Assembly (NCBI GenBank): GCA_964345445.1
Contig: CAYFQT010000024.1
Coordinates: 4,634 to 68,633 of the forward strand
Direction: 5' to 3'
Length of the DNA: 64,000 bases
Origin: an uncultured Candidatus Saccharibacteria bacterium
Lineage (GTDB): Bacteria; Patescibacteriota; CPR2_A; CAYFQT01
The position numbers and the translations under genes were made by a program. Of the stretch, positions 1-51,680 are shown one piece after another (position 1 is the stretch's first letter; the number at the start of each line of letters is the position of its first letter). The notes beneath the pieces are model-generated. The model was not told the DNA's origin, did not search any database, and was given only the letters and a program-made list of their open reading frames with translations.

Positions 1-357
1 GAGGAAACAAAATTAACTCAGCAGTTTATTCAAGAGGAGATAAAAAAAGAAGAAGCTGCAGCCGCGAAAGCGCCCTCCTTCACTAAAGCTACGAAGGGTA
101 AACAAAAGGAGGCAAAAACACAAAGAGAAAAAGCTGCAATCACAAAGACGCAAAAACTTCGCAAAGACGTGAAAAAAGAGAAAGTAAAAAAACCATCTGT
201 AGTTAAAGCTTTAGAGGGTGAGGGAAAGAAAATAAAAGAAGAAAAGCCAAAGGTTATATCTAAAGAAAAGAAAAAATTTTTTGAGATAGAAAAAAGGCCA
301 AAAGTAAGAAAAAAAGAGTCATTTTTCAAAAAATTTTTTCGACGTAAATCTGTGTAG
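1..357 (+). CDS. 5'-partial Lys/Glu/Ala-rich low-complexity ORF, open from the window edge. By position it is the C-terminal extension of ribosomal protein L22 or a separate small basic protein
   Basis: Frame 1 is open from nt 1 to the TAG at 355-357. The translation is K/E-rich with no globular motif. It sits immediately upstream of rpsC, where rplV lies in the S10 operon. Confidence 0.35.
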   Translation, partial: EETKLTQQFIQEEIKKEEAAAAKAPSFTKATKGKQKEAKTQREKAAITKTQKLRKDVKKEKVKKPSVVKALEGEGKKIKEEKPKVISKEKKKFFEIEKRPKVRKKESFFKKFFRRKSV

Positions 358-490
358 CGGCTTCGCCACTACACAGATAGCCACAGATAAATTAATGATG
401 GACACGGATAACGGATAACGGGTCAAGTCAGTGATCAGTGGCTATCCGTAATCAATCAGTAAAAATCAGTGTTTTACTGGAGGTAAAAAT
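358..490 (+). repeat. Family-1 intergenic element (cacagat/cacggat/cagtgat word array), preceded by a post-stop hairpin and followed by a conserved pre-RBS leader
   Basis: tagcggcttcgccacta hairpin, then cacagatagccacagataaat...cagtgatcagtggctatccgtaatcaatcagtaaaaatcagtgttttactggaggtaaaaatATG. Confidence 0.8.
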
Positions 491-1174
491 ATGGGGCAAA
501 AAGTAAATCCAATAGGTTTAAGAATTGGTATCACAGATAGTTGGCGATCTAATTGGTTTGCTACCAAAGGATATACTAAATTCTTACATGAAGATATAAA
601 GCTACGTAATTTTATTCTTAAAAAATTATCTCGGCAAGGAGTAGCTTCTGTTTTAATTGAGAGATCAGCTAATAATATAATTGTTAATATTCATTCTTCT
701 AGACCTGGTGTGATTATTGGTAGAAAGGGTGAAGGTGTTGAAAAGTTAAGAGAACAACTGCAAAAGATAACTAAAACAAAAGTTCAGATTAATATTGAAG
801 AAGTTTCTGAACCAGAAAGCAATGCTTATTTGGTGGCTGAAAATATTGCTTCTCAGTTGGAAAAAAGAATTTCTTTTAGAAGGGCTTTAAAACAAACCAT
901 TGACCGAGCAATGAATACAAAAAGTTGCCAAGGAATAAAAATAACAGTTTGTGGAAGATTGGGGGGGATAGAAATGGCTAGATGTGAGACTTTAAATACT
1001 GGAAAGATGCCCTTGAATACTTTAAGATCCAATATTGATTATGCTTGTGTGCCTGCTTTTACAACTTATGGAGTAATTGGAGTAAAAGTTTGGATATATA
1101 AAGGTGAGATTTTTGAGAAGAAAGTTCAAAATGTTAAAAATGTTCAAGATGTTCAAAATTTTAGCAAGCGTTAG
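491..1174 (+). CDS. rpsC: 30S ribosomal protein S3
   Basis: N-terminus MGQKVNPIGLRIGI... is the S3 signature. RBS ggaggtaaaaat precedes the ATG. The C-terminal ~13 aa are encoded by the atgttcaa repeat array. Confidence 0.95.
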   Translation: MGQKVNPIGLRIGITDSWRSNWFATKGYTKFLHEDIKLRNFILKKLSRQGVASVLIERSANNIIVNIHSSRPGVIIGRKGEGVEKLREQLQKITKTKVQINIEEVSEPESNAYLVAENIASQLEKRISFRRALKQTIDRAMNTKSCQGIKITVCGRLGGIEMARCETLNTGKMPLNTLRSNIDYACVPAFTTYGVIGVKVWIYKGEIFEKKVQNVKNVQDVQNFSKR

Positions 1175-1243
1175 CGATAGAACAATTTGAACAAGGCCCA
1201 AGGGACCGATTGAACAATTAGAACATTTTCGGAGGAAATATTT
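1135..1243 (+). repeat. Family-4 element (atgttcaa / ttgaacat inverted word array), overlapping the rpsC 3' end
   Basis: aatgttaaaaatgttcaagatgttcaaaat ... atagaacaatttgaacaa ... ttgaacaattagaacatttt. Left and right arms are reverse complements. Confidence 0.75.
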
Positions 1244-1687
1244 ATGTTAATGCCTCGTAAGATAAAACATAGAAAACATCAAAGAGGAAGAATGTCGGGT
1301 AAATCTAGTCGAGGATCTTTAATTGCTTTTGGTCGTTTTGCTTTACTTTCTACTGGGCGTGCTTGGATATCTGCTCGTCAGATTGAAGCTGCTAGAAGAG
1401 CAATGACTCGTTATATAAAAAGAGGGGGAAAGATTTGGATTAGAGTTTTTCCTGACAAACCAGTAACCAAGAAAGGAGCAGAAACACCAATGGGAAGTGG
1501 AAAAGGATCTTTAGATCATTTTGTAGCTGTGGTAAAACCAGGAAAGATTTTGTTTGAAATGGATGGAGTCCCAGAGGATGTAGCTCGTGAAGCTATGAGA
1601 CTTGCTTCACATAAGTTATCTATTGGCACTAAATTTTTAGTTAAAGAAACTCCTGGTGAGGAGGAAACAAAAAATGAAGAAAATTAA
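1244..1687 (+). CDS. rplP: 50S ribosomal protein L16
   Basis: [17 protein letters not shown]...[25 protein letters not shown] is the L16 signature. RBS ggagg is present. Confidence 0.95.
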
Positions 1688-1922
1688 AGGCTTAAAAACG
1701 AAAAAAACAAGTGAATTAGTTTCTGAACTTAAAAAAACTCGTCAAAAATTAAGAGCTTTAAATTTTGATTTAGTGACTAAAAAGTTAAAAAATCATCAAG
1801 AAGTTACTTATACAAAAAGAAAGATTGCAATAATTTTGACAATTTTGTCAGAAAGAAGATTGGAAGAAATAGAAAAAATTGCAACCGCAGAGGTACAAAA
1901 AGAAGCAAAGAAGCAAAAGTAA
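1674..1922 (+). CDS. rpmC: 50S ribosomal protein L29
   Basis: [33 protein letters not shown]... is L29-like. ATG at 1674 is preferred over the track's GTG at 1656 (same frame) because RBS gaggagg lies upstream. Overlaps the rplP 3' end. Confidence 0.85.
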
Positions 1923-1986
1923 TTTAGCGACTTTGCTACAACAAATCAGTAACAATCTGTGTTTATCTAATGAATAGGAGATAATT
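1923..1986 (+). repeat. Short family-1-like leader (aatcagtaacaatctgtgttta)
   Basis: Same word set as the pre-RBS part of the family-1 spacers. Confidence 0.5.
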
Positions 1987-2235
1987 ATGGATAAAAAGAA
2001 AAAAAGGACTAAAATTGGTATGGTTGTAAGTGATAAAATGGATAAGACAGTTATTGTAGAAGTTGAAAGATTAAAAGAACACCCATTATATAAAAAAAAA
2101 TATAAAATAAATAGAAGATACAAAGCTCATGATTCTAAAAATGAGTATAAAAAAGGCGATAAAGTTGAAATAGAAGAGACAAGGCCTTTATCTCGTGAAA
2201 AGAGATGGAAAGTAGTGAGTAAAATATCCCAATAG
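1987..2235 (+). CDS. rpsQ: 30S ribosomal protein S17
   Basis: [29 protein letters not shown] is the S17 OB-fold signature. RBS ggagataatt is present. Confidence 0.9.
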
Positions 2236-2403
2236 CGGCTTTGCCACTACCATAAATAGCCACAGACCTACCTGTGCTCTACCAAAGGCGGACAGGCGGC
2301 AGGGCAGGTAAGTCACTGATGGCTACGGATCACAGATGGATCAGTGATTAATGGCTATCTGTAATCAATCCTTGTAAATCTGTGTTTTAGCGGAGATAAA
2401 AAT
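2236..2403 (+). repeat. Family-1 intergenic element with embedded GC-rich cctacctg...caggtaag palindrome
   Basis: tagcggctttgccacta hairpin; ...atagccacagacc; GC palindrome 2267-2322; gtcactgatggctacggatcacagatggatcagtgattaatggctatctgtaatcaatccttgtaaatctgtgttttagcggagataaaaatATG. Confidence 0.8.
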
Positions 2404-2772
2404 ATGATTCAATCTCAAACAAGATTAAAAGTAGCTGATAATACTGGAGCAAAAGAAATTATGTGTATCACAGTTTTAGGCGGCTCCCGAAAAAAATATG
2501 CAAAAATTGGAGATCTTATTACTGCTTCAGTTAAATCAGCTATACCCAATGGGGTGGTTAAAAAGAAAGATAAAGTTTTAGCAGTAATTGTGCGTACTAA
2601 TAAAGAATTTAGGAGGAAAGATGGAACAGTTGTACGTTTTGATGATAATGCAGCAGTAATTATAGGAAAAGATAGGGTTCCAAAAGGAACACGTATTTTT
2701 GGTCCTGTAGCACGAGAATTAAGAGAAAAAAGATTTTCTAAAATAATTTCCCAAGCGCCAGAGGTGCTTTAG
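2404..2772 (+). CDS. rplN: 50S ribosomal protein L14
   Basis: [22 protein letters not shown]... is the L14 signature. Confidence 0.95.
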
Positions 2773-2896
2773 CGGCTTCGCCGCTAAACACAGATTAGCT
2801 ACGGATAAATCAATGATGGCCACAGATTAAGGATTATGAATTACTAATTACTAATAACGAACCAGATCAGTAATCCGTGTTTAGAAGGAGGTGAAT
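2773..2896 (+). repeat. Family-1 intergenic element
   Basis: tagcggcttcgccgcta hairpin, then cacagattagctacggataaatcaatgatggccacagat... Positions 2805-2883 are identical to 3221-3299. Confidence 0.8.
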
Positions 2897-3205
2897 ATGA
2901 AAATAAAAAAGGATGATACAGTTTTAGTTATATGTGGGAAAGATCGAGGTAAGACAGGAAAAGTAGAAAAAGTTTTGCCTCAAAAAAATAAGATTGTAGT
3001 TTCAGGGGTTAATAAACTAAAAAAACATGTAAAACCTTCTTCTAAAAATCCACAAGGAGGAATTATTCAATTTGATGCTCCACTTGACATATCTAATGTA
3101 ATGTTATTATGTTCTCGATGTGATAGAACCACAAGAGTTGGATACAGAATATTAAAAGATGGAACAAAACAAAGGATTTGTAAAAAGTGTAAGGAAGCAG
3201 TATAA
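2897..3205 (+). CDS. rplX: 50S ribosomal protein L24 (KOW domain) with C-terminal CxxC...CxxC ribbon
   Basis: KIKKDDTVLVICGKDRGKTGKV is the KOW motif. ATG at 2897 follows RBS aaggagg. The C-terminus carries CSRC...CKKC. Confidence 0.85.
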   Translation: MKIKKDDTVLVICGKDRGKTGKVEKVLPQKNKIVVSGVNKLKKHVKPSSKNPQGGIIQFDAPLDISNVMLLCSRCDRTTRVGYRILKDGTKQRICKKCKEAV

Positions 3206-3386
3206 ACAGGATAGTTGCTGATAAATCAATGATGGCCACAGATTAAGGATTATGAATTACTAATTACTAATAACGAACCAGATCAGTAATCCGTGTTTAT
3301 TCGACTGAAAACTCGGGGTCCCAAAAATTGTAATGGAACAAAGCGGAATGTTAAGCAATTTTTGGGGTGAAAAAAAGAGGATAAAT
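3206..3386 (+). repeat. Family-1 intergenic element (contains exact 79-bp copy of 2805-2883)
   Basis: ataaatcaatgatggccacagattaaggattatgaattactaattactaataacgaaccagatcagtaatccgtgttta is identical in both spacers. Confidence 0.8.
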
Positions 3387-3932
3387 ATGGCTCGTCTCAA
3401 AGATAAATATGAGAAGGAAATTATTCCAAAATTAAAAGAAGAATTTGGTTATAAAAATGATTTACAAGCTCCCCGTATTTTAAAAGTGGTTATAAATAGT
3501 GGGGTAGGGAGATTTTCTAGAGATACAAAATATTTAGACCAAGTATCTCATGTTCTTGCACAAATTACTGGACAGAAACCTATTTCTAGGAATGCTAGAA
3601 AATCTATTGCCGGATTTAAAGTTAAGAAAGGAATGACTGTAGGCTATATGGTCACTTTAAGAGGGGTGCGGATGTATGAGTTTTTAGATAAATTAATTAA
3701 TATAGTTTTACCAAGAATTAGAGATTTTAAAGGGTTAGATCCAAAAGCTTTTGATGGGAAAGGAAATTATAATATTGGAATTACAGAACATACAGTTTTT
3801 CCAGAAATAAGCTACGAGGATGTTCAGCAGTCTTTTGGATTAGAAATTAGTATTATAACTACGGTTTCTGATAATAAAAAAGCAAAAAAACTCTTGGAAT
3901 TTTTAGGATTTCCCTTTAAAAAAGTATCATAA
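3387..3932 (+). CDS. rplE: 50S ribosomal protein L5
   Basis: [24 protein letters not shown]...VVINSGVG is the L5 signature. Start taken at the in-frame ATG 3387; the track start at 3333 lies inside the repeat spacer. Confidence 0.9.
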
Positions 3933-3952
3933 CGACCAAAGGGAGTAAAAAT

Positions 3953-4138
3953 ATGACTAATAAAGCACAGATTATAAAATCTCAAAAAAAACCTAAATAT
4001 AAAACTCGAAAAATAAATCGATGTAAAATATGTGGAAGGAAAAGAGCTTATATGCGTAAATTTGGAATGTGCCGGATTTGTTTTAGAGAGTTAGCTTCTC
4101 GTGGTGAGATACCAGGGATTACTAAATCAAGTTGGTAG
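3953..4138 (+). CDS. rpsZ: 30S ribosomal protein S14, type Z (zinc-binding)
   Basis: 61 aa with [25 protein letters not shown], the CxxC-x12-CxxC motif. Confidence 0.9.
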
Positions 4139-4419
4139 GTGCTGAAGGCACCTCCACAAATAACTCACAATTACAAAATATTACTCACAAATAGAAACTT
4201 GTTTGTCGGTTACGGTTACGAAACCCGCCCAGAAAGCTTTCTAGGCCCGTATCGTCTCTTGGTTACGAAGTTTGTCAATATAATGCTTGGATAACGTAGC
4301 CCTAACCGCCTCACGATACCCACTTCGTAACCCTAATCATAACTGATTAACTTTATAAAATAGTAATAGTGAGTCAAATGCTTGTTAAAGTGAGTAATAG
4401 TGATTTACCGGAGGTAAAT
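4139..4419 (+). repeat. Compound nested quasi-palindrome: family-3 arms (ttactcacaa / tagtgagtaa) flanking a family-6 core (ggttacg / cgtaacc)
   Basis: Left: aactcacaattacaaaatattactcacaaat. Core: cggttacggttacgaaacc...cgtaaccc. Right: aatagtaatagtgagtcaaatgcttgttaaagtgagtaatagtgatttaccggaggtaaatATG. Confidence 0.75.
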
Positions 4420-4857
4420 ATGACTGATCCAATAGCGGATATGTTAGTTAGAATAAGAAATAGTCAAATGGTTAAAAAAGAGTTTGTTATTGTTCCTTTT
4501 TCTAAAATTAAATGGGAAATAGGTAAAATTTTAGAAAAGGAAGGATTTATAAAAGATTGCAGTCGAATTAAGGCCAGTGATTTATATCAGGATAAGTCTT
4601 TTCGTCTCCGATTTTATAAAGGGAAAAATTTTCCTCAAATAAAAATTGAATTAAAATATTCTGATCAAAAACCAGCTGTATCTGGTCTTAGGCGAGTGAG
4701 TAAACCGGGCCGAAGAATTTATGTTAAAAAGGAAAAGTTACCTTATGTTTTAAGAGGATTAGGAATTGCTATTATTTCTACTTCTTTTGGTATAATGACT
4801 GACAAGGAGGCTAGGAAGAAGAAATTAGGAGGAGAAGTACTTTGTGAGATTTGGTAG
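4420..4857 (+). CDS. rpsH: 30S ribosomal protein S8
   Basis: [15 protein letters not shown]... is the S8 signature. ATG 4420 follows RBS ggaggtaaat. Confidence 0.9.
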
Positions 4858-4977
4858 ACACAATAATAAGTGTCAAGAGTGTCAAAAGTATCACAGGTGT
4901 CAAAGATATATTGCAATAATAACTGATACTTTTGATACATCTGATACCTCTGACACCTGCGACTGGAAGGAGCAAAT
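4858..4977 (+). repeat. Family-2 element: 10-bp-periodic gtgtca/gtatca words mirrored by tgatac/tgacac words around a tatata centre
   Basis: aagtgtcaagagtgtcaaaagtatcacaggtgtcaaagatatattgc...ctgatacttttgatacatctgatacctctgacacctgcgac. Confidence 0.8.
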
Positions 4978-5529
4978 ATGTCTAGAATAGGGAAAATGCC
5001 TATTAAAATCCCTGAAGGAATAAAAGTAAATATTCAAGGCAAAAAAATTACCACAAGTGGTCCTTGTGGAGAATTAAGCTATATTCTACCTGTTTGTATT
5101 GATGTGTTAGAGAAAGATAATAATTTAATTTTAAAAAGGAAAAATGAACAAAAAATTACTCGGAGCCTGCATGGCACTTCAAGAACTTTAATTTCTAATA
5201 TGATTTACGGAGTAACCAAAGGTTTTACAAAAGAATTAGAAATTTCTGGGATAGGTTTTAAAGCATCTAAAAAAGGTGATAATTTAGTATTACAAGTAGG
5301 ATTTTCTCATCCAGTAGAAATTAAACCTCCACAAGGAATAAGTTTTCAAGTTAACAAAAATATAATTACTGTTTTTGGAATTGATAAACAGAAAGTAGGT
5401 ACTATTGCTGCTAAAATCAGATCAGTTCGAAGGCCTGAACCTTATAAAGGCAAGGGAATTAAATATGTTGGGGAGGAAATAAAGAGAAAAGTAGGTAAGG
5501 CTGCTAAAGTAGGTACAGAAGGTCCATAG
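4978..5529 (+). CDS. rplF: 50S ribosomal protein L6
   Basis: MSRIGKMPIKIPEGIKV... is the L6 signature. RBS ggagcaaat is present. Confidence 0.9.
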   Translation: MSRIGKMPIKIPEGIKVNIQGKKITTSGPCGELSYILPVCIDVLEKDNNLILKRKNEQKITRSLHGTSRTLISNMIYGVTKGFTKELEISGIGFKASKKGDNLVLQVGFSHPVEIKPPQGISFQVNKNIITVFGIDKQKVGTIAAKIRSVRRPEPYKGKGIKYVGEEIKRKVGKAAKVGTEGP

Positions 5530-5610
5530 AAGTTAAAATTAGATTCCCTAAAAGAATGTTGCAGAGTGGGGGTGTAAAAAATTTCTGGGATGGTAAGAAG
5601 GGGTATAAGA

Positions 5611-5997
5611 ATGAGTAAATTAGATAAACAGAAATCTAGATTAAGACGAAAAAAAAGAATAAGATCAAAAGTTTTTGGTACAAAAAGAATACCTCGATTT
5701 TGTGTTACAATAAGTTTAAAACATATTTATGTGCAATTAATTAATGATGAGGAAGGAAAAACTATTTTAGCTGCTTGTGATAGCGAAATTGGAAAAAATA
5801 AAAAGTCTAAGAAAGATTTTAAAAAAAATAGTTTAAGTAGAAAAGTGGGATTGTCCTTTGAGGTAGGAAGGTTAGCAGCAAAGAAGGCAAAAGAGAAGAA
5901 AATAAAAAAGGTTGTTTTTGATCGCTCAGGATATAAATATCACGGTCGGGTAAAAGCAGTGGCTGAAGGGGCAAGAAAAGAAGGGTTGGAATTTTGA
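5611..5997 (+). CDS. rplR: 50S ribosomal protein L18
   Basis: MSKLDKQKSRLRRKKRIRSKVFGT...PRFCVTISLKHIYVQLI is the L18 signature. ATG 5611 is in frame with the track start 5590. Confidence 0.85.
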   Translation: MSKLDKQKSRLRRKKRIRSKVFGTKRIPRFCVTISLKHIYVQLINDEEGKTILAACDSEIGKNKKSKKDFKKNSLSRKVGLSFEVGRLAAKKAKEKKIKKVVFDRSGYKYHGRVKAVAEGARKEGLEF

Positions 5998-6149
5998 AGT
6001 CACTTTGTAACTTCCACTATCACTTACAGTTACAGACTATTACTCACAAATGAAATATATAATAGTGAGTTAAATGTATGTAATAGTGAGTAACTTGTGT
6101 TTGTCCGAAGGACAAAATAGTAAGTAATAGTGATTTGCCGGGGGCAAAT
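5998..6149 (+). repeat. Family-3 element (cactatcacttaca...ttactcacaaat // atagtgagttaa...tagtgagtaa)
   Basis: Nearly identical word order to 7785-7901 and 16030-16121. Ends in tagtgatttgccgggggcaaatATG. Confidence 0.75.
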
Positions 6150-6530: not shown

Positions 6531-6565
6531 AATTAGCTTCTTAGGTTAAAAAAACAGGAGTTAAA

Positions 6566-9191: not shown

Positions 9192-9374
9192 ATATAAAAT
9201 TCTAAATTCAAAATTATAAACACTAAACAATATCGAATGTTTTAAATCCAAATGTTCAAAAATAAATCTGATTTACAGAATAGTTTAAGACATTAAAAAA
9301 TTTAAATTTTGAATTTGTTTAGATATTAGAAATTAGATATTAGGATTTATTTCTTAAATTAATAAGAGATTTCT
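9192..9374 (+). repeat. Family-5 element (ttctaaat / aatcctaaat words mirrored by atttagaa / attaggatt)
   Basis: aaattctaaattcaaaatt...ttaaatccaaatgttc ... gaatttgtttagatattagaaattagatattaggatttatttc. Confidence 0.7.
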
Positions 9375-10952: not shown

Positions 10953-11140
10953 AGATAAAGTGTCACAAGTATCAAAGGTGTCAAAAGTAGCCACTTTTAG
11001 AAAATAATTAGAAAAGTCCTAAATCCGAAACAAATTATAATGTCCCAAATTCTAAATTATAAACTGTTTGAAACATTGGAACATTAGAATTTAGATATTG
11101 TTTAGAAATTATATATTAGAAATTAGGATTTTAAAAGCCT
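10953..11140 (+). repeat. Short family-2 block (gtgtcacaagtatcaaaggtgtcaaaag) followed by a family-5 element
   Basis: ...aagtcctaaatccgaaacaaattataatgtcccaaattctaaatt ... ttagaatttagatattgtttagaaattatatattagaaattaggatttt. Confidence 0.7.
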
Positions 11141-11259
11141 TGTAATCTACTGACTAATAGTAATAAAAATTAATTAAAATTGCCCCGTAATCCACTTACG
11201 TTACTACGGGGCCTCAGCCTTTGCAAGGAATAATTATAGCAAAGACTTCGGGAGGTTTT

Positions 11260-12078
11260 ATGGTCAAAGAAATTTTGCCTAAAAAGTATCGTTGGTTTAT
11301 TTGGTGTATTGTTATTATTGTTGCAGTTGGATTATCCTTAGCTGCATATGCTTACATTACTGGAATTAACATTGAAACAGAAACATCAGAAATTGTGGTT
11401 TCTTTTCGTGTTTTAAGAAAAGGTAAGATCAAAGTTGTTAGTAACCCAGATCAAGCTAAGATTTATCTAGATGGCAAAGATACAGGCAAAGAAACCAATG
11501 CCACAGTTTCTACTAAACCAGGAACCCATATTTTGAAACTGACCAAAGATGGTTATAAAGATTATATTGTAGAGATACAGGTTAAAAGAGGAGAAATAGC
11601 TCAGATATCTGTTGGGCTGGAAGAAGGAGAAGGAGTAACTTATCCCCAAGAAGTATCTGAAACTAGTGACTGGGAGACTTATACGAATGAAGAGTATGGA
11701 TATGAGATAAATTATCCGCAAGATTGGAAAATAGAAGATATTACAGCTCAAAAAGTTAATAGTGAAGGACCTTGGTATGTGACTTCTGAATATTTATTAA
11801 ATGTATTAAAAATTAGTAATAATGAAGGTTGGTTAGATATCTGGACATTAAGTAACAAAGAAGGAACTATTGATAATAAGTTTAGATTAGGAAGTGGGTT
11901 AGCTGATAAAGAGGAAATAAGTTTTACAGGAGAAGAAGCTTGGAAATATTCTAAAGATAATTATTATGAAATAGTTATTTTAAAAGGTACTTATATTTAT
12001 AGTATAACCTCAAATACTTATGATAAGAGTAAATCAGATATTGATCAGATGCTTTCTACTTTCCAATTCACGAAATAG
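11260..12078 (+). CDS. Hypothetical membrane-anchored protein with PEGA-like domain, inserted between map and infA
   Basis: N-terminal TM helix WFIWCIVIIVAVGLSLAAY. PEGA-like segment KVVSNPDQAKIYLDGKDTGKETNATVSTKPGTHILKLTKDGYKDY. ATG 11260 follows RBS gggagg. Confidence 0.6.
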   Translation: MVKEILPKKYRWFIWCIVIIVAVGLSLAAYAYITGINIETETSEIVVSFRVLRKGKIKVVSNPDQAKIYLDGKDTGKETNATVSTKPGTHILKLTKDGYKDYIVEIQVKRGEIAQISVGLEEGEGVTYPQEVSETSDWETYTNEEYGYEINYPQDWKIEDITAQKVNSEGPWYVTSEYLLNVLKISNNEGWLDIWTLSNKEGTIDNKFRLGSGLADKEEISFTGEEAWKYSKDNYYEIVILKGTYIYSITSNTYDKSKSDIDQMLSTFQFTK

Positions 12079-12250
12079 ATTTTCGTTAAGAGGTTAGGGT
12101 TATGAAATGTGTATCGTAGTTCGGTTACGGTTATGTGGAAATTAAATGACGTAACCGACTAACGTAACCGATACGGGCATCCTAACCTTAAACGTAACCG
12201 ATTTACAATCTCTAGTAAACTTTAGCAATATCTATCAACTATTTAGTAAC
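12079..12250 (+). repeat. Family-6 element (ggttagggttatg / ggttacggttatg mirrored by cgtaaccg x3 / cctaacc)
   Basis: gaggttagggttatgaaatgtgtatcgtagttcggttacggttatgtgg...gacgtaaccgactaacgtaaccgatacgggcatcctaaccttaaacgtaaccgat. Confidence 0.7.
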
Positions 12251-12378
12251 TAATATTAACCATTAATGTAGCTGCTCAATTTATTGAGCTAACAAAGCTG
12301 CTAATGCCGCTAAATCAGTAAGCTACTTGTTTCATATATAAAAGATTGCTATAATAAAGGAGTATCTAAACAAAATTT

Positions 12379-12657
12379 ATGGCAAAAAAAGAGAAGAAAA
12401 ATCCAAAATCGGCAACAGATAAGGATGAAATACAAGCCAAAAAGAAAAAAGAAGTGATCGAAGCCGAAGGAACCGTCCTAGAAACTTTGCCCAATGCTAC
12501 ATTCCGTGTAGAGTTAGAAAACGGGAATGTTATATTGGCTCATATTTCCGGTAGAATGCGAATGAATTATATCCGCATTATCCCTGGAGATAAAGTTACT
12601 GTGGAAATGACTCCTTATGATTTAACCAAAGGACGAATCACTTATAGACATAAGTAG
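12379..12657 (+). CDS. infA: Translation initiation factor IF-1 with Lys-rich N-terminal extension
   Basis: [60 protein letters not shown] is the IF-1 S1-fold signature. Confidence 0.9.
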
Positions 12658-12829
12658 CGACTTCGTCGCTACCACAGATAGCCACGGACAAATCACTGAT
12701 AACCACAGATCGCGGATCATAAATAACTGATAACGAATAATAGGTGATGAATAATAGATCAGTGATCAGTTGGCTATCCGTAACAAATCAGTGAAAATCC
12801 GCGTTTATCCGACTAAGGAGGATAATGGA
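12658..12829 (+). repeat. Family-1 element with covarying post-stop hairpin tagcgacttcgtcgcta
   Basis: ccacagatagccacggacaaatcactgataaccacagatcgcggatcat...gatcagtgatcagttggctatccgtaacaaatcagtgaaaatccgcgtttatccgactaaggaggataatgg. Confidence 0.8.
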
Positions 12830-12943
12830 ATGAAAGTTAGAGCTTCAGTTAAAAAAATATGTTCCAAATGTAAAATAGTCCGCCGCAAGGGGAAAGTGCG
12901 GGTTATTTGTGAAAATCCCAAGCATAAACAACGTCAGGGGTAA
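12830..12943 (+). CDS. rpmJ: 50S ribosomal protein L36 (not in the supplied ORF track)
   Basis: Manual translation gives [37 protein letters not shown], 37 aa with the canonical L36 Cys/His zinc motif. RBS aaggagg lies 6 nt upstream. It sits between infA and rpsM as expected. Confidence 0.85.
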
Positions 12944-13050
12944 GATGTCAGAAGTATCACAGGTGTCATTGGTGTCAAAGGATATATATGATAACCTCTG
13001 ATACTTTTGATACATTTGATACCTCTGACACCTGCGACGAAGGAGCAAAT
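12944..13050 (+). repeat. Family-2 element
   Basis: gatgtcagaagtatcacaggtgtcattggtgtcaaaggatatatatgataacctctgatacttttgatacatttgatacctctgacacctgcgac. Near-identical right arm to 4930-4970. Confidence 0.8.
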
Positions 13051-13437
13051 ATGGCACGTATTGCTGGTGTAAATATTCCCACTGATAAAAGAATAGAAAT
13101 TTCTTTAACCTATATTTATGGTATAGGCAGGAGTTTAAGTGGCAAAATTTTATCTCAAGCTAACATTGATCCAAATGTAAAGACTTCTGCTTTAACCGAG
13201 GAAGAAATAAATCGCCTTAGAGAAATAATAGAGAAAAATTATAAGGTAGAAGGAGATTTAAAAAGAGAAATAACTAAAAATATTAAGAGATTAAAAGATA
13301 TTAGTAGTTACAAAGGGGATAGACATAGGAGAAATCTTCCTACCAGAGGGCAAAGAACTAAAACTAATGCTAGAACAAAAAGAGGGAAGAAAGTTACTGT
13401 AGGAACCGGTCGTAGAAAACCACCCGAGAAAACTTAG
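13051..13437 (+). CDS. rpsM: 30S ribosomal protein S13
   Basis: [28 protein letters not shown] is the S13 signature. ATG 13051 follows RBS aaggagc. The track's upstream extension is read from repeat words. Confidence 0.9.
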
Positions 13438-13575
13438 GCGCCTACGGCGTCTCACGAGAGCCACGGATAAGTCACTGATGGCCGCGGCTCACGGATAACT
13501 AATGTCTAATCAGATCAGTGATCAGTGGCTATCCGTAATAAATTAGTGGCAATCTGTGTTTAAATGGGGAATAAA
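13438..13575 (+). repeat. Family-1 element with post-stop hairpin aggcgcctacggcgtct
   Basis: gagccacggataagtcactgatggccgcggctcacggataactaatgtctaatcagatcagtgatcagtggctatccgtaataaattagtggcaatctgtgtttaaatgggg. Confidence 0.8.
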
Positions 13576-13983
13576 ATGAAAGAGTCTAAAAAGAGAACAA
13601 TAAGTAGAAAGAAAAAAAAGCGCGAGATAAAGAGGGAAATTAAAAAAGGTCAGGCTTATATTCAGTCAACGTTTAATAATACTATTATTACTATCACTGA
13701 TTTAGAGGGAAATGCTATTTGTTGGGGAAGTGCTGGTACATTAGGATTTAAAGGGACTAGAAAAAGTACCCCTTATGCTGCTCAAATTACAGCCCAATCT
13801 ATAGCTGACAAAGTCAAAGGAAAAGGAATAGAAGAATTGGAAGTGTATGTAAAAGGAATAGGGGCAGGTAGAGAATCAGCAATTCGTGCTTTGGATGCTG
13901 CAGGAATTAATGTAATTTCTATTAAAGATAAAACTCCTATTCCTCATAATGGTTGCCGACCCAAAAAACCTAGACGGGTCTAG
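13576..13983 (+). CDS. rpsK: 30S ribosomal protein S11 with Lys-rich N-terminal extension
   Basis: [42 protein letters not shown] is the S11 signature. ATG 13576 follows tgggga; ATG 13564 is an in-frame alternative. Confidence 0.85.
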
Positions 13984-14244
13984 ACACAAAATATCACAAA
14001 AAGATACACAAAAATTCACTAATACGAAAGGTTACAAATATAATATTCGTAATAATTAGCGAGTGAAGACTACAGTTACGAATAACTACCTACCTGCGGC
14101 GGACAAATTACTATACGAATTAGATACAAATATATAATATTAGTGATTAATTAGTGAGCGGAAGTAAACAATCATAGCTATTTTAATATTTAATTTAAGT
14201 TCAAACAATACAAATAAGAATGCAAAATTAGTGAGGTTTAGTGT
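13984..14244 (+). repeat. Word-array spacer, private dialect (attcactaatacgaa / attcgtaataattagcgagtgaa / cgaattagatacaaat / ttagtgattaattagtgagcg)
   Basis: Inverted word symmetry around 14100. Occupies the whole 260-bp rpsK-rpsD spacer. Confidence 0.6.
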
Positions 14245-14862
14245 ATGAAAGACAATGTTTGTAAAAAATGTAGAAGAGAAGGTGTAAAACTCTTTTTGAA
14301 AGGCGAAAGGTGTCTTACTCCAAAGTGTTCTATAGTTCGCCGAAGTTATGCTCCAGGAGAGCATGGAATGCGGCCTATAAGACTTTCAGATTTTGGCGTC
14401 CAATTACGAGAAAAACAGAAAGTGCGTAAAATTTATGGAATTTCAGAAAGACAATTTAGAAATTATTTTAAAAAAGCTGACAGAAAAGAAGGGATTACTG
14501 GTGATATTTTATTTCAATTGCTAGAGATGAGATTAGATAATGTTGTATATAGATTAGGATTAGCAAGCTCTAGAAGGCAAGCAAGAATTTTAATTGACCA
14601 TGGACATTTTTTAATAAATGGTAAAAAAGTAGACATCCCTTCTTATCAAGTAAGAGAAGGAGATAAAATAGAAATAAAAAAGAGAAGTAAAGAAAGTTTT
14701 TTATTTAAACAATTGACTAAAAAACTTTCTAAATATAATCCTCCTTCTTGGCTTAAATTAGACTCTAAGAAATTAAAAGGAGAAGTTTTAAAAATCCCTG
14801 AACGTAAAGAAATAGATGCAAATATTGATGAATCACAAATTGTGGAGTTTTATTCAAGATAG
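14245..14862 (+). CDS. rpsD: 30S ribosomal protein S4 (zinc-ribbon N-terminus)
   Basis: CKKCRREGVKLFLKGERCLTPKC is the ribbon. SRRQARILIDHGHFLINGKKVDIPSYQV is the S4 domain. Confidence 0.9.
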   Translation: MKDNVCKKCRREGVKLFLKGERCLTPKCSIVRRSYAPGEHGMRPIRLSDFGVQLREKQKVRKIYGISERQFRNYFKKADRKEGITGDILFQLLEMRLDNVVYRLGLASSRRQARILIDHGHFLINGKKVDIPSYQVREGDKIEIKKRSKESFLFKQLTKKLSKYNPPSWLKLDSKKLKGEVLKIPERKEIDANIDESQIVEFYSR

Positions 14863-15054
14863 ACATGAATAGTAAATAGTTGAAGGTTAGAGCATCCGGT
14901 TTAGTTTTTGGTTTAAAGGCTATGGGTATAAAAAACTAATAGACTACTTACTACAGACTAAACCGGCTACCGAACCTAACAAACATAAACTATAGACTAA
15001 TAATTTATATTAAAATAACTGCGTATAAATTTGTAACTTATAAGGAGGACTTCA
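14863..15054 (+). repeat. Word-array spacer, private dialect (ccggtttagtttttggtttaaagg // ctaaaccggctaccgaacctaacaaac)
   Basis: Inverted arms around ctatgggtataaaaaactaatagactac. Confidence 0.55.
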
Positions 15055-16029
15055 ATGCCAGAAGATCAATTTTTACAAATTTTTCCCAAGATTAAAACTA
15101 TTTCACAAACAAAAGACAAAGGGGTTTTTATCATTGAACCATTTTATCCTGGTTATGGAATGACTATTGGTAATTCTCTCAGGAGAGTGCTTCTATCATC
15201 TTTAGAAGGATCAGCTATCACAGCAGTGAAAATTAAAGGGGTATCTCATGAATTTTCTGCTCTCCCTCATATAAAAGAAGATATAGTAGAGATTATTTTG
15301 AATTTAAAAACAATACGTATTAAATCTCATTCTAAAAAACCCATAACTCTTGAATTAAAAGCTAAAGGTAAAAAAAAGCTTAAAGCTGGTGATATTCAAA
15401 AATCTCAGGATATAGAAATTATCAATCCTGATTTACACATTGCTACTTTAGATAGTCCAAAAGCAGAGTTGATTATAGAAATGCGATTAGAAAAAGGAAG
15501 AGGCTATCTTCCAATAGAGGAAAGAGGAGATGAAAAATTATCTTCTGGAATGATTGCTATTGATGCTATTTTCACACCAATTAAGCGAGTTTCTTATAAT
15601 GTAGAGCATACTCGAGTAGGAAGAATGACCAACTTAGAAAAGTTAAATTTAGAAATTATGACGGATGGGACGGTTAGTCCTAAAGATGCTCTGCAACAAG
15701 CTTCTAAAATTTTGGTAGAACATTTTTCTCTTTTTACTCCAGAGGGTGTAGAGAAGAAAAAAGTTACAAAAACTCCTTCTCGTAAAACAATCCAAAGAGC
15801 TAAAGCTAAGAAATTTTCAGTTGAAGAAGTAGATTTTTCTCCCCGTGCTGCCAATGCTCTTTTAAATAATAAGATAAAAACAATGGGAGAAATTACTAAA
15901 TTAACCGAAGAAGAACTCGGACAACTTAAAGGTTTTGGTAATGTAGCTTTGGGTGAAATAAAAACTAAATTATCTGAATTAGGATTAAAATTAAAGGAGC
16001 CAAAGAAGTCAGAAACTCCTCACAAATAA
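15055..16029 (+). CDS. rpoA: DNA-directed RNA polymerase subunit alpha
   Basis: IEPFYPGYGMTIGNSLRRVLLSSLEGSAITAVKIKGVSHEFS is the RpoA N-terminal domain. A C-terminal domain is present. RBS aaggagg is present. Confidence 0.9.
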   Translation: MPEDQFLQIFPKIKTISQTKDKGVFIIEPFYPGYGMTIGNSLRRVLLSSLEGSAITAVKIKGVSHEFSALPHIKEDIVEIILNLKTIRIKSHSKKPITLELKAKGKKKLKAGDIQKSQDIEIINPDLHIATLDSPKAELIIEMRLEKGRGYLPIEERGDEKLSSGMIAIDAIFTPIKRVSYNVEHTRVGRMTNLEKLNLEIMTDGTVSPKDALQQASKILVEHFSLFTPEGVEKKKVTKTPSRKTIQRAKAKKFSVEEVDFSPRAANALLNNKIKTMGEITKLTEEELGQLKGFGNVALGEIKTKLSELGLKLKEPKKSETPHK

Positions 16030-16121
16030 CTCACTGTTACAGACTATCACTCACAAATATTAGTAACAGTGAGTAATATGTTAGTTAAAGTGAATAACAG
16101 TGGTTTTTATCGGAGATAAAA
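16030..16121 (+). repeat. Family-3 element
   Basis: ctcactgttacagactatcactcacaaatattagtaacagtgagtaatatgttagttaaagtgaataacagtggtttttatcggagataaaaATG. Confidence 0.75.
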
Positions 16122-16472
16122 ATGAGGCATCGGAAAAAGGGTAAAAAATTAAATTTATCTAAAGATAGACGAGAGGCTTTATTAAAAAATTTAGCTACTT
16201 CAGTTATTCTTTATGAAAAAGTAAAGACCACTGAAGCTAAAGCTAAAGCAGTACGTCCTATTGTTGAGAAGCTAATTACTATAGGTAAAAAAGGTAATTT
16301 ATCTGCACAAAGACAGCTTTTATCTTATTTACCTGACAGGAATGCTGTGCGGAAAATTATGGAAGAATTTGCTAAAAAATACAAAGATAAGCCTGGAGGT
16401 TATATAAGGATTTATAAAATCGGATATAGAGCTGGAGACAAAGCCAAAATGGTTTATATAGAACTTATTTAG
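16122..16472 (+). CDS. rplQ: 50S ribosomal protein L17
   Basis: MRHRKKGKKLNLSKDRREALLKNLATSVILYEKVKTTEAKAKAVRPIVEKLIT is the L17 signature. Confidence 0.9.
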   Translation: MRHRKKGKKLNLSKDRREALLKNLATSVILYEKVKTTEAKAKAVRPIVEKLITIGKKGNLSAQRQLLSYLPDRNAVRKIMEEFAKKYKDKPGGYIRIYKIGYRAGDKAKMVYIELI

Positions 16473-16641
16473 GTCCTTTGGACCCTCCACAGATAGCCAC
16501 GACCTGCCTGCTCCACCAAAAGCGGACAGGCGGCAGGCAAGTAAATCACTGATGGCCACGGATCGCAGATCACAACTTATGGATTATAGATTAATAATCA
16601 GTGACAATCCATGGTTATTTGACTGAAAGGAGAATAACAAG
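16473..16641 (+). repeat. Family-1 element with post-stop hairpin aggtcctttggaccct and embedded GC palindrome
   Basis: ccacagatagccacgacctgcctgctccaccaaaagcggacaggcggcaggcaagtaaatcactgatggccacggatcgcagatcacaact...aatcagtgacaatccatggttatttgactgaaaggag. Confidence 0.8.
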
Positions 16642-17070
16642 GTGAAGACTTACATTCCCAAAATTAAAAATATTCAAAGAAAATGGTATTTAATTGATGC
16701 CAGAGGCAAGAATTTAGGAAGGTTATCTTCTGAGATAGTAATGTTGCTTTGTGGTAAGAAGAAAGCTATTTTTACTCCGCATTTAGATTGTGGGGATTAC
16801 GTTGTTGTAATTAATGCTAAATATATAAAAGTTACAGGTTCAAAACAAAATAAAAAAGTTTATTTTCAACATAGTGGATATCCAGGAGGTGTTAAATCTG
16901 AAAGTTTTAAGCAACTTCTTCAAAAAAATCCTTCTGAGATTATTTATAAAGCAGTATGGGGTATGTTATCTCATAATAGGCTAGGAAGAGATATTATTAA
17001 AAAGTTAAAAATTTATCCAGAGTCTGAATATCCCCAAAAGAGTCAAAAATTGGAAAAATATGAAATTTAG
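16642..17070 (+). CDS. rplM: 50S ribosomal protein L13
   Basis: KWYLIDARGKNLGRLSSEIVMLLCGKKKAIFTPHLDCGDYVVVINAKYIKVTG is the L13 signature. GTG start follows RBS aaggag. Confidence 0.9.
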   Translation: MKTYIPKIKNIQRKWYLIDARGKNLGRLSSEIVMLLCGKKKAIFTPHLDCGDYVVVINAKYIKVTGSKQNKKVYFQHSGYPGGVKSESFKQLLQKNPSEIIYKAVWGMLSHNRLGRDIIKKLKIYPESEYPQKSQKLEKYEI

Positions 17071-17158
17071 TATTATATAGACTATTGACTATGATCTACA
17101 GTCTACAAATTACTGATTAAATTAAAATAATAAAATAATAAAAGGTCTATGTCTTTCT

Positions 17159-17704
17159 ATGACCATCGGGAAAATAGGGAAAACTATGCCAAAAGAAAAA
17201 AAAGCAACTATTCCAAAAAAAACGGGACAGGTAAAAAAACAAAAAAAACCGCAAAAACTACAGAAGAAAATAATTTCTTCAAAAGAGAAGGTTGAACAAA
17301 AGTCTTCTATCTCAAAGAAGAAATACTTTTATGCTGTTGGTAGAAGAAAATGTGCAGAAGCTCAGGTGCGTTTATATTCAGGAAAGGGGGAGATAATAAT
17401 AAATAATAAACCATGTAGGGAATATTTTCCTACTTTTTTTCTTCAGAAGATTATATATCAACCTCTTTTACTTGTAGGAGGTGAAAAAAAATTTAATATA
17501 GAAGTTAAGACAAAAGGTGGGGGTATGCGAGGTCAAGCTGAAGCTATTCGTCTGGGTATAGCCCGGGCTTTATTAAATTTTGATAAAAATCTAAAGAAGA
17601 CTGTGAAAAAAGCTGGATTCCTAACTCGTGATCCTAGAAAAAAAGAACGCAAAAAATATGGATATAGAGGGGCCCGTAGGGGTCGCCAGTTTAGAAAGAG
17701 ATAG
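17159..17704 (+). CDS. rpsI: 30S ribosomal protein S9 with ~50-aa Lys-rich N-terminal extension
   Basis: YFYAVGRRKCAEAQVRLYSGKG...GGGMRGQAEAIRLGIARALL...YGYRGARRGRQFRKR is the S9 signature. An alternative in-frame start is at 17186. Confidence 0.85.
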   Translation: MTIGKIGKTMPKEKKATIPKKTGQVKKQKKPQKLQKKIISSKEKVEQKSSISKKKYFYAVGRRKCAEAQVRLYSGKGEIIINNKPCREYFPTFFLQKIIYQPLLLVGGEKKFNIEVKTKGGGMRGQAEAIRLGIARALLNFDKNLKKTVKKAGFLTRDPRKKERKKYGYRGARRGRQFRKR

Positions 17705-18004
17705 TCATAGATAAGAAGCAAAAATCCTAAATACGAAATTCTAAACCCTAAACAATATCAAATTACCAAATGACCAAAATACCAAAGGGCTGAAGAACAA
17801 AGATTGTTATTAAGCTTACCTTTAGGAAATCGGAGGGTTATTACATTAATAATTTATTTAGTTTAGAACATTTGAATTTAGATATTAGGATTTGTTTAGA
17901 AATTAGATATTAGAAATTAGTATTTATTTCATCATATTGAGAAGTTAAGTTATATTTTTATATATGATAGTAACATAAGTTAGTGACCAAATTAGTAACT
18001 CATT
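17705..18004 (+). repeat. Family-5 element (aaaatcctaaatacgaaattctaaaccctaaacaatatc ... gaatttagatattaggatttgtttagaaattagatattagaaattagtattt)
   Basis: Left and right arms reverse-complementary. Fills the rpsI-cdaA spacer. Confidence 0.7.
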
Positions 18005-51677: not shown

Positions 51678-51680
51678 TAA

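Follow-up and report, generated by a model that had tools for sequence, protein, structure and literature searches.

What occupies the junctions between ribosomal-protein genes in a member of the candidate phyla radiation (CPR/Patescibacteria), a group whose genomes are regarded as streamlined, and in the very cluster (S10-spc-alpha) that serves as the standard example of tightly packed, translationally coupled genes? The question is raised by a stretch of 64,000 nt (hereafter the window; positions 4,634 to 68,633 of contig CAYFQT010000024.1, assembly GCA_964345445.1) from an uncultured Candidatus Saccharibacteria bacterium. The window is AT-rich (G+C ~32%), and its S10-spc-alpha cluster extends over positions 1-17704 of the + strand, from the 3' end of rplV through rpsI, with secY, adk, map, infA, rpoA and two additional open reading frames (ORFs) lying within it. 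The closest protein matches are found in Patescibacteria/CPR, SecY being 49% identical to that of a CPR2 genome and 57–64% identical to those of many 'Patescibacteria group' metagenome-assembled genomes. A preliminary description of the window had noticed expanded spacers in the cluster, filled with short words and their reverse complements. We consider that these spacers are probably explained by a lineage-specific invasion of non-autonomous palindromic elements, similar in kind to miniature inverted-repeat transposable elements (MITEs), repetitive extragenic palindromes and bacterial interspersed mosaic elements (REP-BIME), enterobacterial repetitive intergenic consensus (ERIC) sequences and short tandemly repeated repetitive (STRR) sequences, and tolerated by preserving translation signals. 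So understood, the feature is an extreme, multi-family case of a known class of selfish DNA and not a new RNA system.

Repeat families in the gene junctions

Spacers of at least 60 nt were found at 24 of the 27 junctions of the cluster (median 133 nt, total 3820 nt); rplP and rpmC overlap, and the rplE-rpsZ (20 nt) and hyp-rpsE (35 nt) spacers are short, hyp being the additional ORF behind rplR. Since the median spacer length of the same cluster is 11 nt in the relative L007 (63% SecY identity) and the cluster is mostly compact in a more distant CPR2 genome (L001), the expansion noticed earlier is real and lineage-specific. It does occupy the most conserved operon, but is not unique to it, because the same-strand junctions of the window outside the cluster have a median of 104 nt.

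By alignments and nhmmer profile searches of the window, the vocabularies of the spacers were found to be dispersed repeat families with consensus sequences, and approximately 20–21 of the 27 cluster junctions carry recognised members of at least six of them. Family 1 is present in 10 copies in the 64 kb, family 2 in about nine, and families 3–6 in two to five each; the reuse of family-specific vocabularies at many loci, including some outside the cluster (29266-29341 and the positions beyond 25 kb in Table 1), was described correctly. Copies of a family at unlinked loci are 75–93% identical over 100–170 nt, non-repetitive centres and flanking modules included. All families are built of 7–11-nt words followed by the reverse complements of these words, and Tandem Repeats Finder returned periods of 9 nt for the GTGTCA/GTATCA and GTTCAA words, 7 nt for the TCCTAAA-type and GGTTACG words, and 10 nt for TAATAGTGAG and TAGTAACC.

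The family 1 unit (~135 nt) is composed of a small TAG-bearing hairpin (e.g. TAGCGGCTTCGCCGCTA), a 5' arm starting with CACAGATAGCCACGGATAAATCACTGATGGCCACAGAT, an AT-rich centre, a 3' arm ending with ATCAGTGATCAGTGGCTATCCGTAATAAATCAGTGAAAATCTGTG and a hairpin TTTTACCGGAGGTAAAA that holds the GGA of the Shine-Dalgarno (SD) sequence in its loop, with the ATG a few bases further on; families 2–6 are similar in behaviour. Arms aligned with their reverse complements read, for example, CACAGATAGCCAC...GTGGCTAT...ATCTGTG, and the central base of the CACNGAT word varies and is not complementary between the arms. Perfect hairpins with the SD sequence in the loop are more frequent than expected (7 observed vs 0.8), and five of them abut start codons of the cluster. 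As such hairpins also occur in short, element-free spacers of the relative L020 (GCA_004196295.1, see below), they may reflect a habit of the lineage as a whole that is carried, but was not invented, by the elements.

Nested subfamilies point to copying between loci. A GC-rich mini-palindrome, CCTGCC...GGCAGG, lies at the same internal position in three family 1 copies (2233-2403, 16470-16641 and 34430-34600), which therefore descend from one modified master copy; the adjacent rplN-rplX and rplX-rplE junctions have a 99-nt copy in common; and family 6 nested in family 3 is seen at rpsZ-rpsH in the window and in the rpsE-rplO spacer of another relative, L004. The mini-palindrome CCTGCCTGYCGGCAGRCAGG, nested in family 1 at ~2266-2309, 16502-16542 and 34542-34559, was also found alone at 18909-18929 and 52327-52346 and, in L020, within a different family at infA-rpmJ; it may constitute a tiny mobile or REP-like unit in its own right. 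Half-elements and decayed copies are encountered frequently.

For each spacer, we compared the minimum free energy (MFE) of its RNA fold with those of 100 dinucleotide shuffles (z-score) and the best local alignment with its own reverse complement, a DNA-level palindrome score, with those of 200 such shuffles. The palindrome score was matched by no more than one of the 200 shuffles in 13 of 25 spacers, and the MFE z-scores were mostly between -2 and -6 (mean -2.7), with the strongest folds at rpmJ-rpsM, rplO-secY and rpsH-rplF (Table 1), so that the arrays with reverse-complement arms of the preliminary description were borne out. The idea of one hairpin per junction was not: in addition to the overlapping pair and the two short junctions, no significant symmetry was found at rpmC-rpsQ, rplF-rplR, rplM-rpsI and rpsK-rpsD (13984-14244), where z is ~0, as it is for the rpsC-rplP spacer taken alone. 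Among the proposed private dialects, 14884-14980 is palindromic, 13984-14244 is not significantly so, and 24432-24627 is a direct 10-nt array with no inverted arm. Direct arrays of 10-nt period (TAGTAACCNN x5) are located at 12215-12270 and 24471-24522, just upstream of the promoter-like TTGCTATAAT of infA and rplU; they are not hairpins, are retained as arrays in the relative L005 (4130-4230), and may be phased upstream promoter elements or binding sites.

Translation signals and occupancy in related genomes

All clear copies are co-oriented with the downstream gene. Most genes here are on the + strand, and the informative cases are two minus-strand copies (34430-34600 and 25961-26066), both of which follow the gene. 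Homology between the window and L004 breaks off 40–95 nt ahead of the stop codon of the preceding gene and is regained 5 nt short of the ATG, so that a variable C-terminal tail, the stop codon and the SD sequence all come from the element; this accounts for both the orientation rule and the tolerance of elements in essential operons. The rpsE product ends with ...NTDKPRINH in the window, ...ILSHLRDSTNGSQSQTTTHK in L004 and ...KKIPANKKG in L020, the adk tail of the window is DNCSKC, and the rplO tail has 4 word copies in the window vs ~2 in L004. Genes followed by family 1 mostly end with TAG (rpsE has TAA directly followed by TAG, and the partial copy at rplX lies after TAA), the stop codon of infA and rplQ in L020 being TAA; the distance from the SD sequence to the ATG at element ends is 5–9 nt. 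Short element-derived tails, seen on rpsC, rpsE, rplO, rpsQ, rpoA and adk, differ among close relatives.

A promoter and terminator scan revealed no enrichment of promoter-like sites in the spacers and no sense-strand terminators; transcription of the cluster thus probably continues across the elements, which, as predicted from their sequences, are neither terminators nor obvious promoters.

The sequence of the window recurs in three other assemblies, L003 (100% identity), L008 (97.7% by BLAST, a scaffold-gap artefact included) and L009 (99.5%), and analogous elements are present in four related genomes. L009 reaches 4.6 kb further upstream, where rplC-rplD-rplW-rplB-rpsS-rplV are separated by the same and by further families. 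L004 (SecY 92% identical) and L005 (84%) are also expanded, often with another family at the equivalent junction. At rpsE-rplO the window has family 1 where L004 has the family 6-in-family 3 composite; at rplO-secY it has family 3 where L004 has a CGTAGTA/TACTACG family that is absent from the entire window; and at infA-rpmJ it has family 1 where L005 and L020 have the AATAACTAAAT family. The adk-map junction carries family 4 in the window and L005 alike, and secY-adk carries family 5 in the window and L004, the CGTAGTA family in L005 and nothing in L020; two families have hit this junction independently, in two lineages.

Empty sites come from L020 (SecY 89% and rpoA 84% amino-acid identity by alignment), with a gene order identical to that of the window, the two extra ORFs included. 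Its spacers are 3 nt at rpsE-rplO (106 nt in the window), 19 nt at secY-adk (183 nt), 32 nt at rpsK-rpsD (261 nt), 19 nt at rpoA-rplQ (92 nt), 21 nt at rplQ-rplM (169 nt) and 34 nt at rplR-hyp (152 nt), and because the outgroup L007 is compact, these six differences are gains in the window lineage. Orthologous family 2 elements are common to both genomes at rpsH-rplF and rpmJ-rpsM, and L020 has a decayed one at rplO-secY, which accounts for the orphan family 2 arm in the rplO tail of the window (VSQVSGVSQVS).

Several observations on these assemblies should be added. Contig breaks in the closest relatives (L003, L004 and L005), whose contigs are short, fall inside elements, as expected of multi-copy repeats. 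In L009, the 3' end of rpsQ contains an additional family 6 segment with ATGGAAAGTA / ATGGTAAGTA at its borders, and the window may tentatively be read as a deletion between these repeats, with an NN gap lying inside the L009 segment, within the family 6 element. A 45-nt 'indel' between L008 and the window was rejected as an artefact, as it adjoins an NN scaffold gap (L008 3184-3185) coinciding with the apparent loss of 45 nt of rplP. A metagenome scan with a family 1 24-mer retrieved just two contigs, both of the same population as the window, and is uninformative on wider spread. In L001, whose cluster is otherwise mostly compact, AT-rich hairpins built of words follow rplO and secY (9803-10003 and 11315-11462), the one behind secY with TTAGAAA/TTAGGAT words like those of family 5; low-density versions of these repeats may be widespread in CPR bacteria. 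On the reverse complement of L009, a conserved leader of ~110 nt (two hairpins, then GGAAGTTTACTTTGAC ahead of the start codon) precedes rplC and rplW (~570-690 and 2195-2300) and could represent either a further repeat module or a regulatory leader common to both genes; rpsJ is not directly upstream of rplC on this contig.

Table 1. Palindromic elements and associated modules in the window (z, z-score of MFE; shuffles, number out of 200 matching the palindrome score; bits, profile score; SD, Shine-Dalgarno)
Positions	Strand	Family	Junction or setting	Structure and signals	Scores and relatives
355..490	+	1	rplV-rpsC	TAG hairpin 355-371, CACNGAT arm, AT-rich centre, ATCNGTG arm, SD hairpin; ATG 491	z -3.8; palindrome 0/200 shuffles; 122 bits
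1111..1243	+	4 (GTTCAA/TTGAAC, 9-nt period)	rpsC-rplP	5' arm is rpsC tail VQNVKNVQDVQNFSKR; SD hairpin TTTTCGGAGGAAA upstream of rplP	
1936..1968	+	1, 3'-arm remnant	rpmC-rpsQ spacer		14.8 bits
2233..2403	+	1	rpsQ-rplN	nested GC-rich mini-palindrome ~2266-2309; rpsQ tail VVSKISQ derived from family 3 arm remnant	profile match
2770..2896	+	1	rplN-rplX		93% identical to next junction over 99 nt
3206..3303	+	1	rplX-rplE		repeat comparison, profile match
3304-3386		separate leader module	after family 1 of rplX-rplE		upstream of secY in L005
4139..4419	+	composite	rpsZ-rpsH	family 3 outside (4139-4196, 4360-4419), family 6 inside (4196-4350)	z -3.0
4858..4977	+	2 (GTGTCA/GTATCA x4, TGATAC/TGACAC x4, 9-nt period)	rpsH-rplF		z -5.0; 0/200; L020 orthologue
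5998..6149	+	3	rplR-hyp	SD hairpin 6133-6149	z -4.1; 34 nt in L020
7091..7235	+	1	rpsE-rplO	5' arm encodes rpsE tail and stop codon; SD hairpin 7217-7233	129.6 bits; 3 nt in L020
7671..7710	+	2, orphan 5' arm	rplO C-terminal extension (VSQVSGVSQVS)		decayed family 2 in L020
7785..7901	+	3	rplO-secY	post-stop hairpin 7782-7798; SD hairpin 7884-7900	z -5.3
9192..9374	+	5 (7-nt period, TCCTAAA/TTTAGGA)	secY-adk		19 nt in L020; CGTAGTA family in L005
10016..10184	+	4	adk-map	5' arm is adk tail and stop	166.7 bits; same family in L005
10953..11135	+	2, orphan 5' arm, and 5	map-PEGA gene	family 2 arm 10953-10995; family 5 11014-11135	0/200
12081..12209	+	6 (GGTTACG/CGTAACC)	3' of PEGA gene		absent from site in L020
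12655..12829	+	1	infA-rpmJ		134.7 bits; AATAACTAAAT-family element instead in L005, L020
12942..13050	+	2	rpmJ-rpsM	best hairpin of the region	z -6.2; palindrome z 10.3; decayed L020 orthologue
13435..13575	+	1	rpsM-rpsK		0/200 shuffles; 132.1 bits
14884..14980	+	private, single-copy palindromic	rpsD-rpoA		1/200; L020 keeps flanking spacer without element
16016..16121	+	3	rpoA-rplQ	5' arm is rpoA stop; SD hairpin 16104-16122	0/200; 19 nt in L020
16470..16641	+	1	rplQ-rplM	nested GC mini-palindrome ~16502-16542	21 nt in L020
17705..17952	+	5	rpsI-cdaA		1/200 shuffles; 176.5 bits
25961..26066	-	2	abuts start of minus-strand signal-peptidase gene	3' tail ...GACACATGCGACCGAAGGGAGCAAT, family-typical, legible on minus strand	46.2 bits (-) vs 26.5 (+)
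34430..34600	-	1	upstream of minus-strand rpmE	nested mini-palindrome ~34542-34559	105.9 bits (-) vs 22.1 (+)
36285..36387	+	2	tsf-pyrH		profile match
38441..38545	+	2	3' of uppS		profile match
42408..42612	+	5	mreB-mreC		168.1 bits
43419..43560	+ (ambiguous)	2, element(s)	mreC-mreD		profile match
60251..60351	+	6	upstream of ORF at 60363		79.8 bits

The proposed selection on RNA structure and the probable origin of the elements

The arms had been held to be complementary only if G-U pairs are allowed, and this had been taken as a sign of selection on RNA rather than on DNA. When the 5' arms were aligned with the reverse complements of their 3' arms, both transition types being scored equally, 1154 positions were Watson-Crick pairs and 246 were transversion mismatches, and G·U (a wobble pair in sense RNA) and A·C (a wobble pair only in antisense RNA) were found at 94 and 120 positions, respectively; as a general rule, then, the claim of pairing only by way of G-U is wrong. 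Family 2 alone leans slightly towards G·U (30 vs 20), while families 1 and 5 lean the opposite way; G·U accounts for 10.0% of the MFE pairs in sense and 9.9% in antisense orientation, and the mean fold z is -3.3 for antisense vs -2.7 for sense. With mismatches, folds and G·U fractions all symmetric, the G-U argument for RNA selection is to be rejected, and palindromy is, as judged from the sequences, a property of the DNA. An alignment of seven family 1 copies with 19 consensus long-arm pairs showed no compensatory double change, only invariance or breakage.

These results bear on the alternative that the junctions are selected RNA punctuation, i.e. that hairpins fold or are cut (for instance by RNase III) at each junction of the polycistronic mRNA, a post-stop hairpin guarding the 3' end of the upstream cistron and an SD hairpin the 5' end of the downstream one, so that ends are protected and cistrons independent. 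Chloroplasts provide a precedent in intercistronic inverted repeats whose association with genes is conserved but whose sequence is not (PMC4226036), and the modular, repeated architecture of stop hairpin, long hairpin and SD hairpin, the strict orientation, the probable co-transcription of the spacers, the compensatory changes in the small post-stop hairpin, the high conservation of one orthologous element and the density of elements in the ribosomal cluster would all suit such a role. We nonetheless judge it unlikely, given the balance of G·U and A·C and the equally good antisense folds, the long arms devoid of compensation, the six junctions at which L020 has no element, the mostly unfolded state of the element that it shares, and the frequent half-elements and decayed copies; these same results, short of the last, speak against the RNA selection that had been proposed for the window.

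An origin in situ, by local slippage of the 7–11-nt words and intrastrand template switching under a convergent mutational bias and with no movement between loci, would explain the clear short periods of the arrays, the word number differing between relatives in the rplO tail, the private dialect at 14884-14980 and the direct-only array at 24471-24522, and template switching could yield symmetry at the DNA level together with covariation in the small hairpin. It is quite improbable in view of the 100–170-nt consensus sequences maintained at unlinked loci, their common nested insertions, and the same composite at different junctions in the window and L004. Alternatively, the words (CAC-N-GAT at 10–11 nt, GTRTCA at 9 nt) might be recognised, as DNA or RNA, by a sequence-specific protein (for example of the transposase, nucleoid-protein or modular-repeat type), with an inverted layout that reflects the symmetry of binding. 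Repeated subterminal binding motifs are typical of some transposon ends, the words are conserved in sequence with a variable, non-complementary central base in CACNGAT, and the periods of families 1–4 are near one helical turn; however, one protein would be needed for each of at least 7–8 unrelated vocabularies, the period is 7 nt in families 5 and 6, and no candidate protein is encoded in the window, so that we give this reading only a slight chance.

There is virtually no prospect that the arrays are an assembly or chimera artefact, or a guide-RNA array of CRISPR or tandem interspaced guide RNA (TIGR) type. Palindromic repeats do disturb assembly, NN gaps adjoin or lie inside elements in L008 and L009, and TIGR arrays are present in CPR bacteria (PMC12045711). 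On the other hand, the recurrence of the sequence in three independent assemblies excludes an artefact, the relatives carry analogous elements, and 36-nt units with variable dual spacers, a box C/D pattern, a Nop-domain gene and a Cas gene are all lacking.

The invasion by palindromic elements must itself be set against several findings that weigh against it. No transposase, RAYT, TnpB, integrase, Cas or Nop-domain was found among the Pfam-searched ORFs of the window, and the 40 longest ORFs of 18-64 kb, searched with Pfam, contain no transposase domain. Comparison of filled sites of the window with L004 and with the empty sites of L020, where the native spacers offer just 3–34 nt for such a comparison, showed no consistent target-site duplication, the sole hint being a possible TAA at the family 5 copy after secY. 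Some elements are single-copy ('private') within the window. On a rough count, recognised elements occupy ~21 of 27 junctions in the cluster vs ~8 of 30 in the rest of the window (Fisher p ~2e-4), a density in the ribosomal cluster that is unexpected for a purely deleterious parasite. In the small post-stop hairpin, three of four pairs show compensatory changes among family 1 copies; here alone selection on the sense RNA is perhaps conceivable, and templated repair of the DNA palindrome could be an alternative cause. Finally, the rpsH-rplF family 2 element is 88% identical to its L020 orthologue, compared with 62% for four-fold degenerate sites (n=1375), 66% for the element-free rplF-rplR spacer and 75%, with a large deletion, for the rpmJ-rpsM element, a possible sign of constraint, gene conversion or recent exchange. 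The fold of this rpsH-rplF copy has a z of only -1.2 in L020 vs -5.0 in the window, and high identity with a lost fold disfavours strong selection on structure in L020; local four-fold identity around the segment is 0.77–0.94, and the 88% is compatible with gene conversion or recent exchange.

Under the invasion that we favour, non-coding palindromic repeats of ~100–280 bp, mobile or copy-pasted, would have spread recently in one narrow CPR lineage. The copies able to persist in essential operons would be those lying along the direction of transcription and bringing the necessities of a junction: an open 5' arm readable as a short C-terminal tail, a stop codon in the element (often TAG within a small GC hairpin) and, at the 3' end, an SD sequence exposed by a small hairpin in its loop and correctly spaced from the start codon. 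This may act as a ratchet: with the native stop and SD sequence gone, imprecise loss would be lethal and only precise replacement viable, and elements would hence be replaced, nested into or slowly decayed and not cleanly removed. Once transcribed, their hairpins of 30–50 bp could affect mRNA processing, mRNA stability or translational uncoupling.

Known repeat classes, further features and significance

The earlier statement that no described system matches was too strong, as REP/BIME, ERIC, Correia elements, mycobacterial interspersed repetitive units (MIRUs) and STRR hairpins have major features in common with the window elements (PMC3184786, PMC3733652, PMC2649163, PMC12548453, PMC2670836). 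ERIC sequences (also called intergenic repeat units, IRUs) and bacterial MITEs are imperfect palindromes of ~100–170 bp dispersed in transcribed intergenic regions (PMC3184786, PMC2229807, PMC2759123). Like these, the elements described here are non-coding and non-autonomous, would form long mRNA hairpins and extend into ORFs, adding peptide tails; they constitute small dispersed families with terminal inverted repeats (13 of 25 spacers) and presence/absence polymorphism (six junctions of 3–34 nt in L020 vs 92–261 nt in the window). Unlike them, they have no sequence relation (no Rfam or BLAST match), their arms consist of 7–11-nt tandem words, at least six families coexist, stop and SD signals are carried and the ribosomal cluster is saturated; neither a parent insertion sequence nor a target-site duplication was identified for the window elements.

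REPs are GC-rich imperfect palindromes of 20–40 bp with an unpaired GTAG or CGTC tag, for which roles in mRNA stability have been proposed (PMC3733652). The window resembles them in its small GC-rich hairpins right after stop codons within operons, in inverted pairs that build larger structures and in probable transcription. Its small hairpins are, however, 15–20 nt long (15–17 nt for the post-stop ones, e.g. TAGCGGCTTCGCCGCTA), with the TAG paired in the stem and used as stop, a G precedes in some copies only, so that the GTAG tag is wanting, the bulk of the element is an AT-rich word array, and Pfam found no RAYT gene among the window ORFs. Cyanobacterial STRR sequences form hairpins from 7-bp tandem words and their complements between co-transcribed genes such as hupS-hupL, with a proposed role in transcript stability or translational coupling (PMC2670836). 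The likeness lies in short tandem words and complements that give intergenic hairpins in operons, and in the 7-nt period of families 5 and 6; families 2 and 4 have a period of 9 nt, and family 3 and the TAGTAACC arrays one of 10 nt, the range here being 7, 9 and 10–11 nt, and the phylum, the words, the longer consensus units, the flanking modules and the family turnover are different. To our knowledge, the heptamers published for STRR bear no relation to the words of the window.

MIRUs are mobile-looking repeats in operons, in fixed orientation by start codons and with downstream expression preserved (PMC12548453, PMC3184786), which is achieved via a small ORF with overlapping stop and start and -4 coupling (PMC12548453). 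The window elements are likewise orientation-locked and start-codon-proximal and spare the downstream gene, but they have no bridging ORF, bring a stop and their own SD sequence, and are long palindromes, whereas MIRUs are direct tandem units. Correia elements of Neisseria (~100–150 bp) have inverted ends, are co-transcribed, form hairpins bound or cut by RNase III, and differ in presence between strains, altering regulation (PMC2649163). Size, inverted ends, probable co-transcription and presence/absence differences between genomes are shared with the window; the 26-bp terminal inverted repeats, TA duplication, IHF sites and promoter-forming ends of Correia elements were not found here. The inverted repeats of chloroplasts are gene-end hairpins, conserved in position but not in size or sequence, that function in 3' processing and stability of polycistronic transcripts; unlike the window arrays, they are single stems of ~25 bp mostly at operon ends, with one, terminal, in a 24-gene ribosomal operon (PMC4226036).

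Further candidates were rejected. TIGR arrays, which adjoin a Tas gene with a Nop domain, consist of ~36-nt tandem units that have box C/D motifs and two variable spacers of 8–12 nt (PMC12045711); in the window the words are constant (~3 variable bases), the periods are 7–11 nt, and no Nop/Tas domain was found in the ORFs, which dismisses TIGR- and CRISPR-like arrays. Integron cassettes are dismissed by core genes in the ancestral order, as in element-lacking relatives, and by the lack of a window integrase; attC motifs were not searched for. As to a viral origin, the family 1 18-mer is absent from viral contigs, BLAST against phages gave no match, and ten viral matches to the family 2 arm pattern are unrelated coding 9-nt repeats (Asp-Thr-X) with no inverted arms. 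No match in 1-18100 reached the Rfam gathering threshold; the sole one at E<=1, Alpha_RBS (RF00140) at 12967-13083 (+), scored 23.5 bits vs a cut-off of 38 (E 0.084), and is located at the rpsM start, the expected place of an S4-binding leader, overlapping the 3' arm of family 2. Full-text searches of the literature on Patescibacteria/CPR repeats and on repeats inside S10/spc operons yielded no account of such elements.

Other features of the window were recorded as well. The two extra ORFs of the cluster, which keep their position in L004, L005 or L020, encode a 126-aa product with a hydrophobic N-terminus between rplR and rpsE (6150-6530; no Pfam match is on record for its L004 and L020 homologues) and a PEGA-domain protein between map and infA (11260-12078). 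Long Lys/Glu-rich C-terminal extensions on rplV (window 1-357) and rpsS (L009 reverse complement 3653-4138) have an origin other than the repeat families. At 58000-58083 (+) there is an aptamer of the c-di-GMP-II riboswitch (Rfam RF01786, 69.9 bits vs a cut-off of 53.5), ~570 nt upstream of an ORF with no Pfam match (58656-60035; Pro/Glu/Gln-rich 9/18-nt repeats at 59596-59730); a palindrome and family 1-like CACGGAT words (58140-58180) lie 3' of the aptamer. The segment 46205-47019 (815 nt with no convincing ORF and G+C above the surroundings), to which no Rfam model matched at E<=0.1, harbours a tandem pair of ~100-nt units (~46540-46640 and ~46645-46745) inside inverted sequences CCTACTAGC / GCTAGTAGG and may be an undescribed structured RNA. 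Strong predicted structure and no Rfam match were also noted for the non-coding 49276-49466 (MFE -58 on the + and -64 on the - strand) and 51643-52085. A conserved motif TATACCGCGACCGCGATAGAAATATATATTT with a palindromic core occurs at 47412-47466, 56777-56831 and 57449-57503; two copies flank a gene with a PaaX_M / Cas2-like domain (56871-57425), and the copies look like putative operator sites of this regulator. The ORF at 60363-62123, with a transglutaminase-elicitor-like domain, contains a 291-nt tandem repeat (60603-61288; 2.4 copies, 70% identity).

In practical terms, the repeats fragment metagenome assemblies of this clade and mislead gene callers (false extended ORFs, wrong starts), and public assemblies of the clade call for caution around repeats, where NN gaps coincide with apparent indels. 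Were the cluster a punctuated operon after all (a rather doubtful proposition), in which interchangeable hairpin cassettes made up of a stop hairpin, a long double-stranded RNA stem and a looped SD sequence guide endonucleolytic processing, protect cistron ends and allow independent initiation, the lineage would have turned the coupled, overlapping genes of the ribosomal super-operon into separately initiated cistrons, and the intercistronic processing of chloroplasts would have a parallel in bacteria made from mobile DNA. In a related reading, the arrays might be read by a modular nucleic-acid-binding protein. Close relatives span the range from a compact to a near-saturated ribosomal cluster and form a natural series in which to study how selfish DNA that brings its own stop codons and ribosome-binding signals may thereby gain entry to essential operons with high expression, how ribosomal proteins acquire tails from such insertions, and whether transcribed hairpins are later co-opted for mRNA processing.

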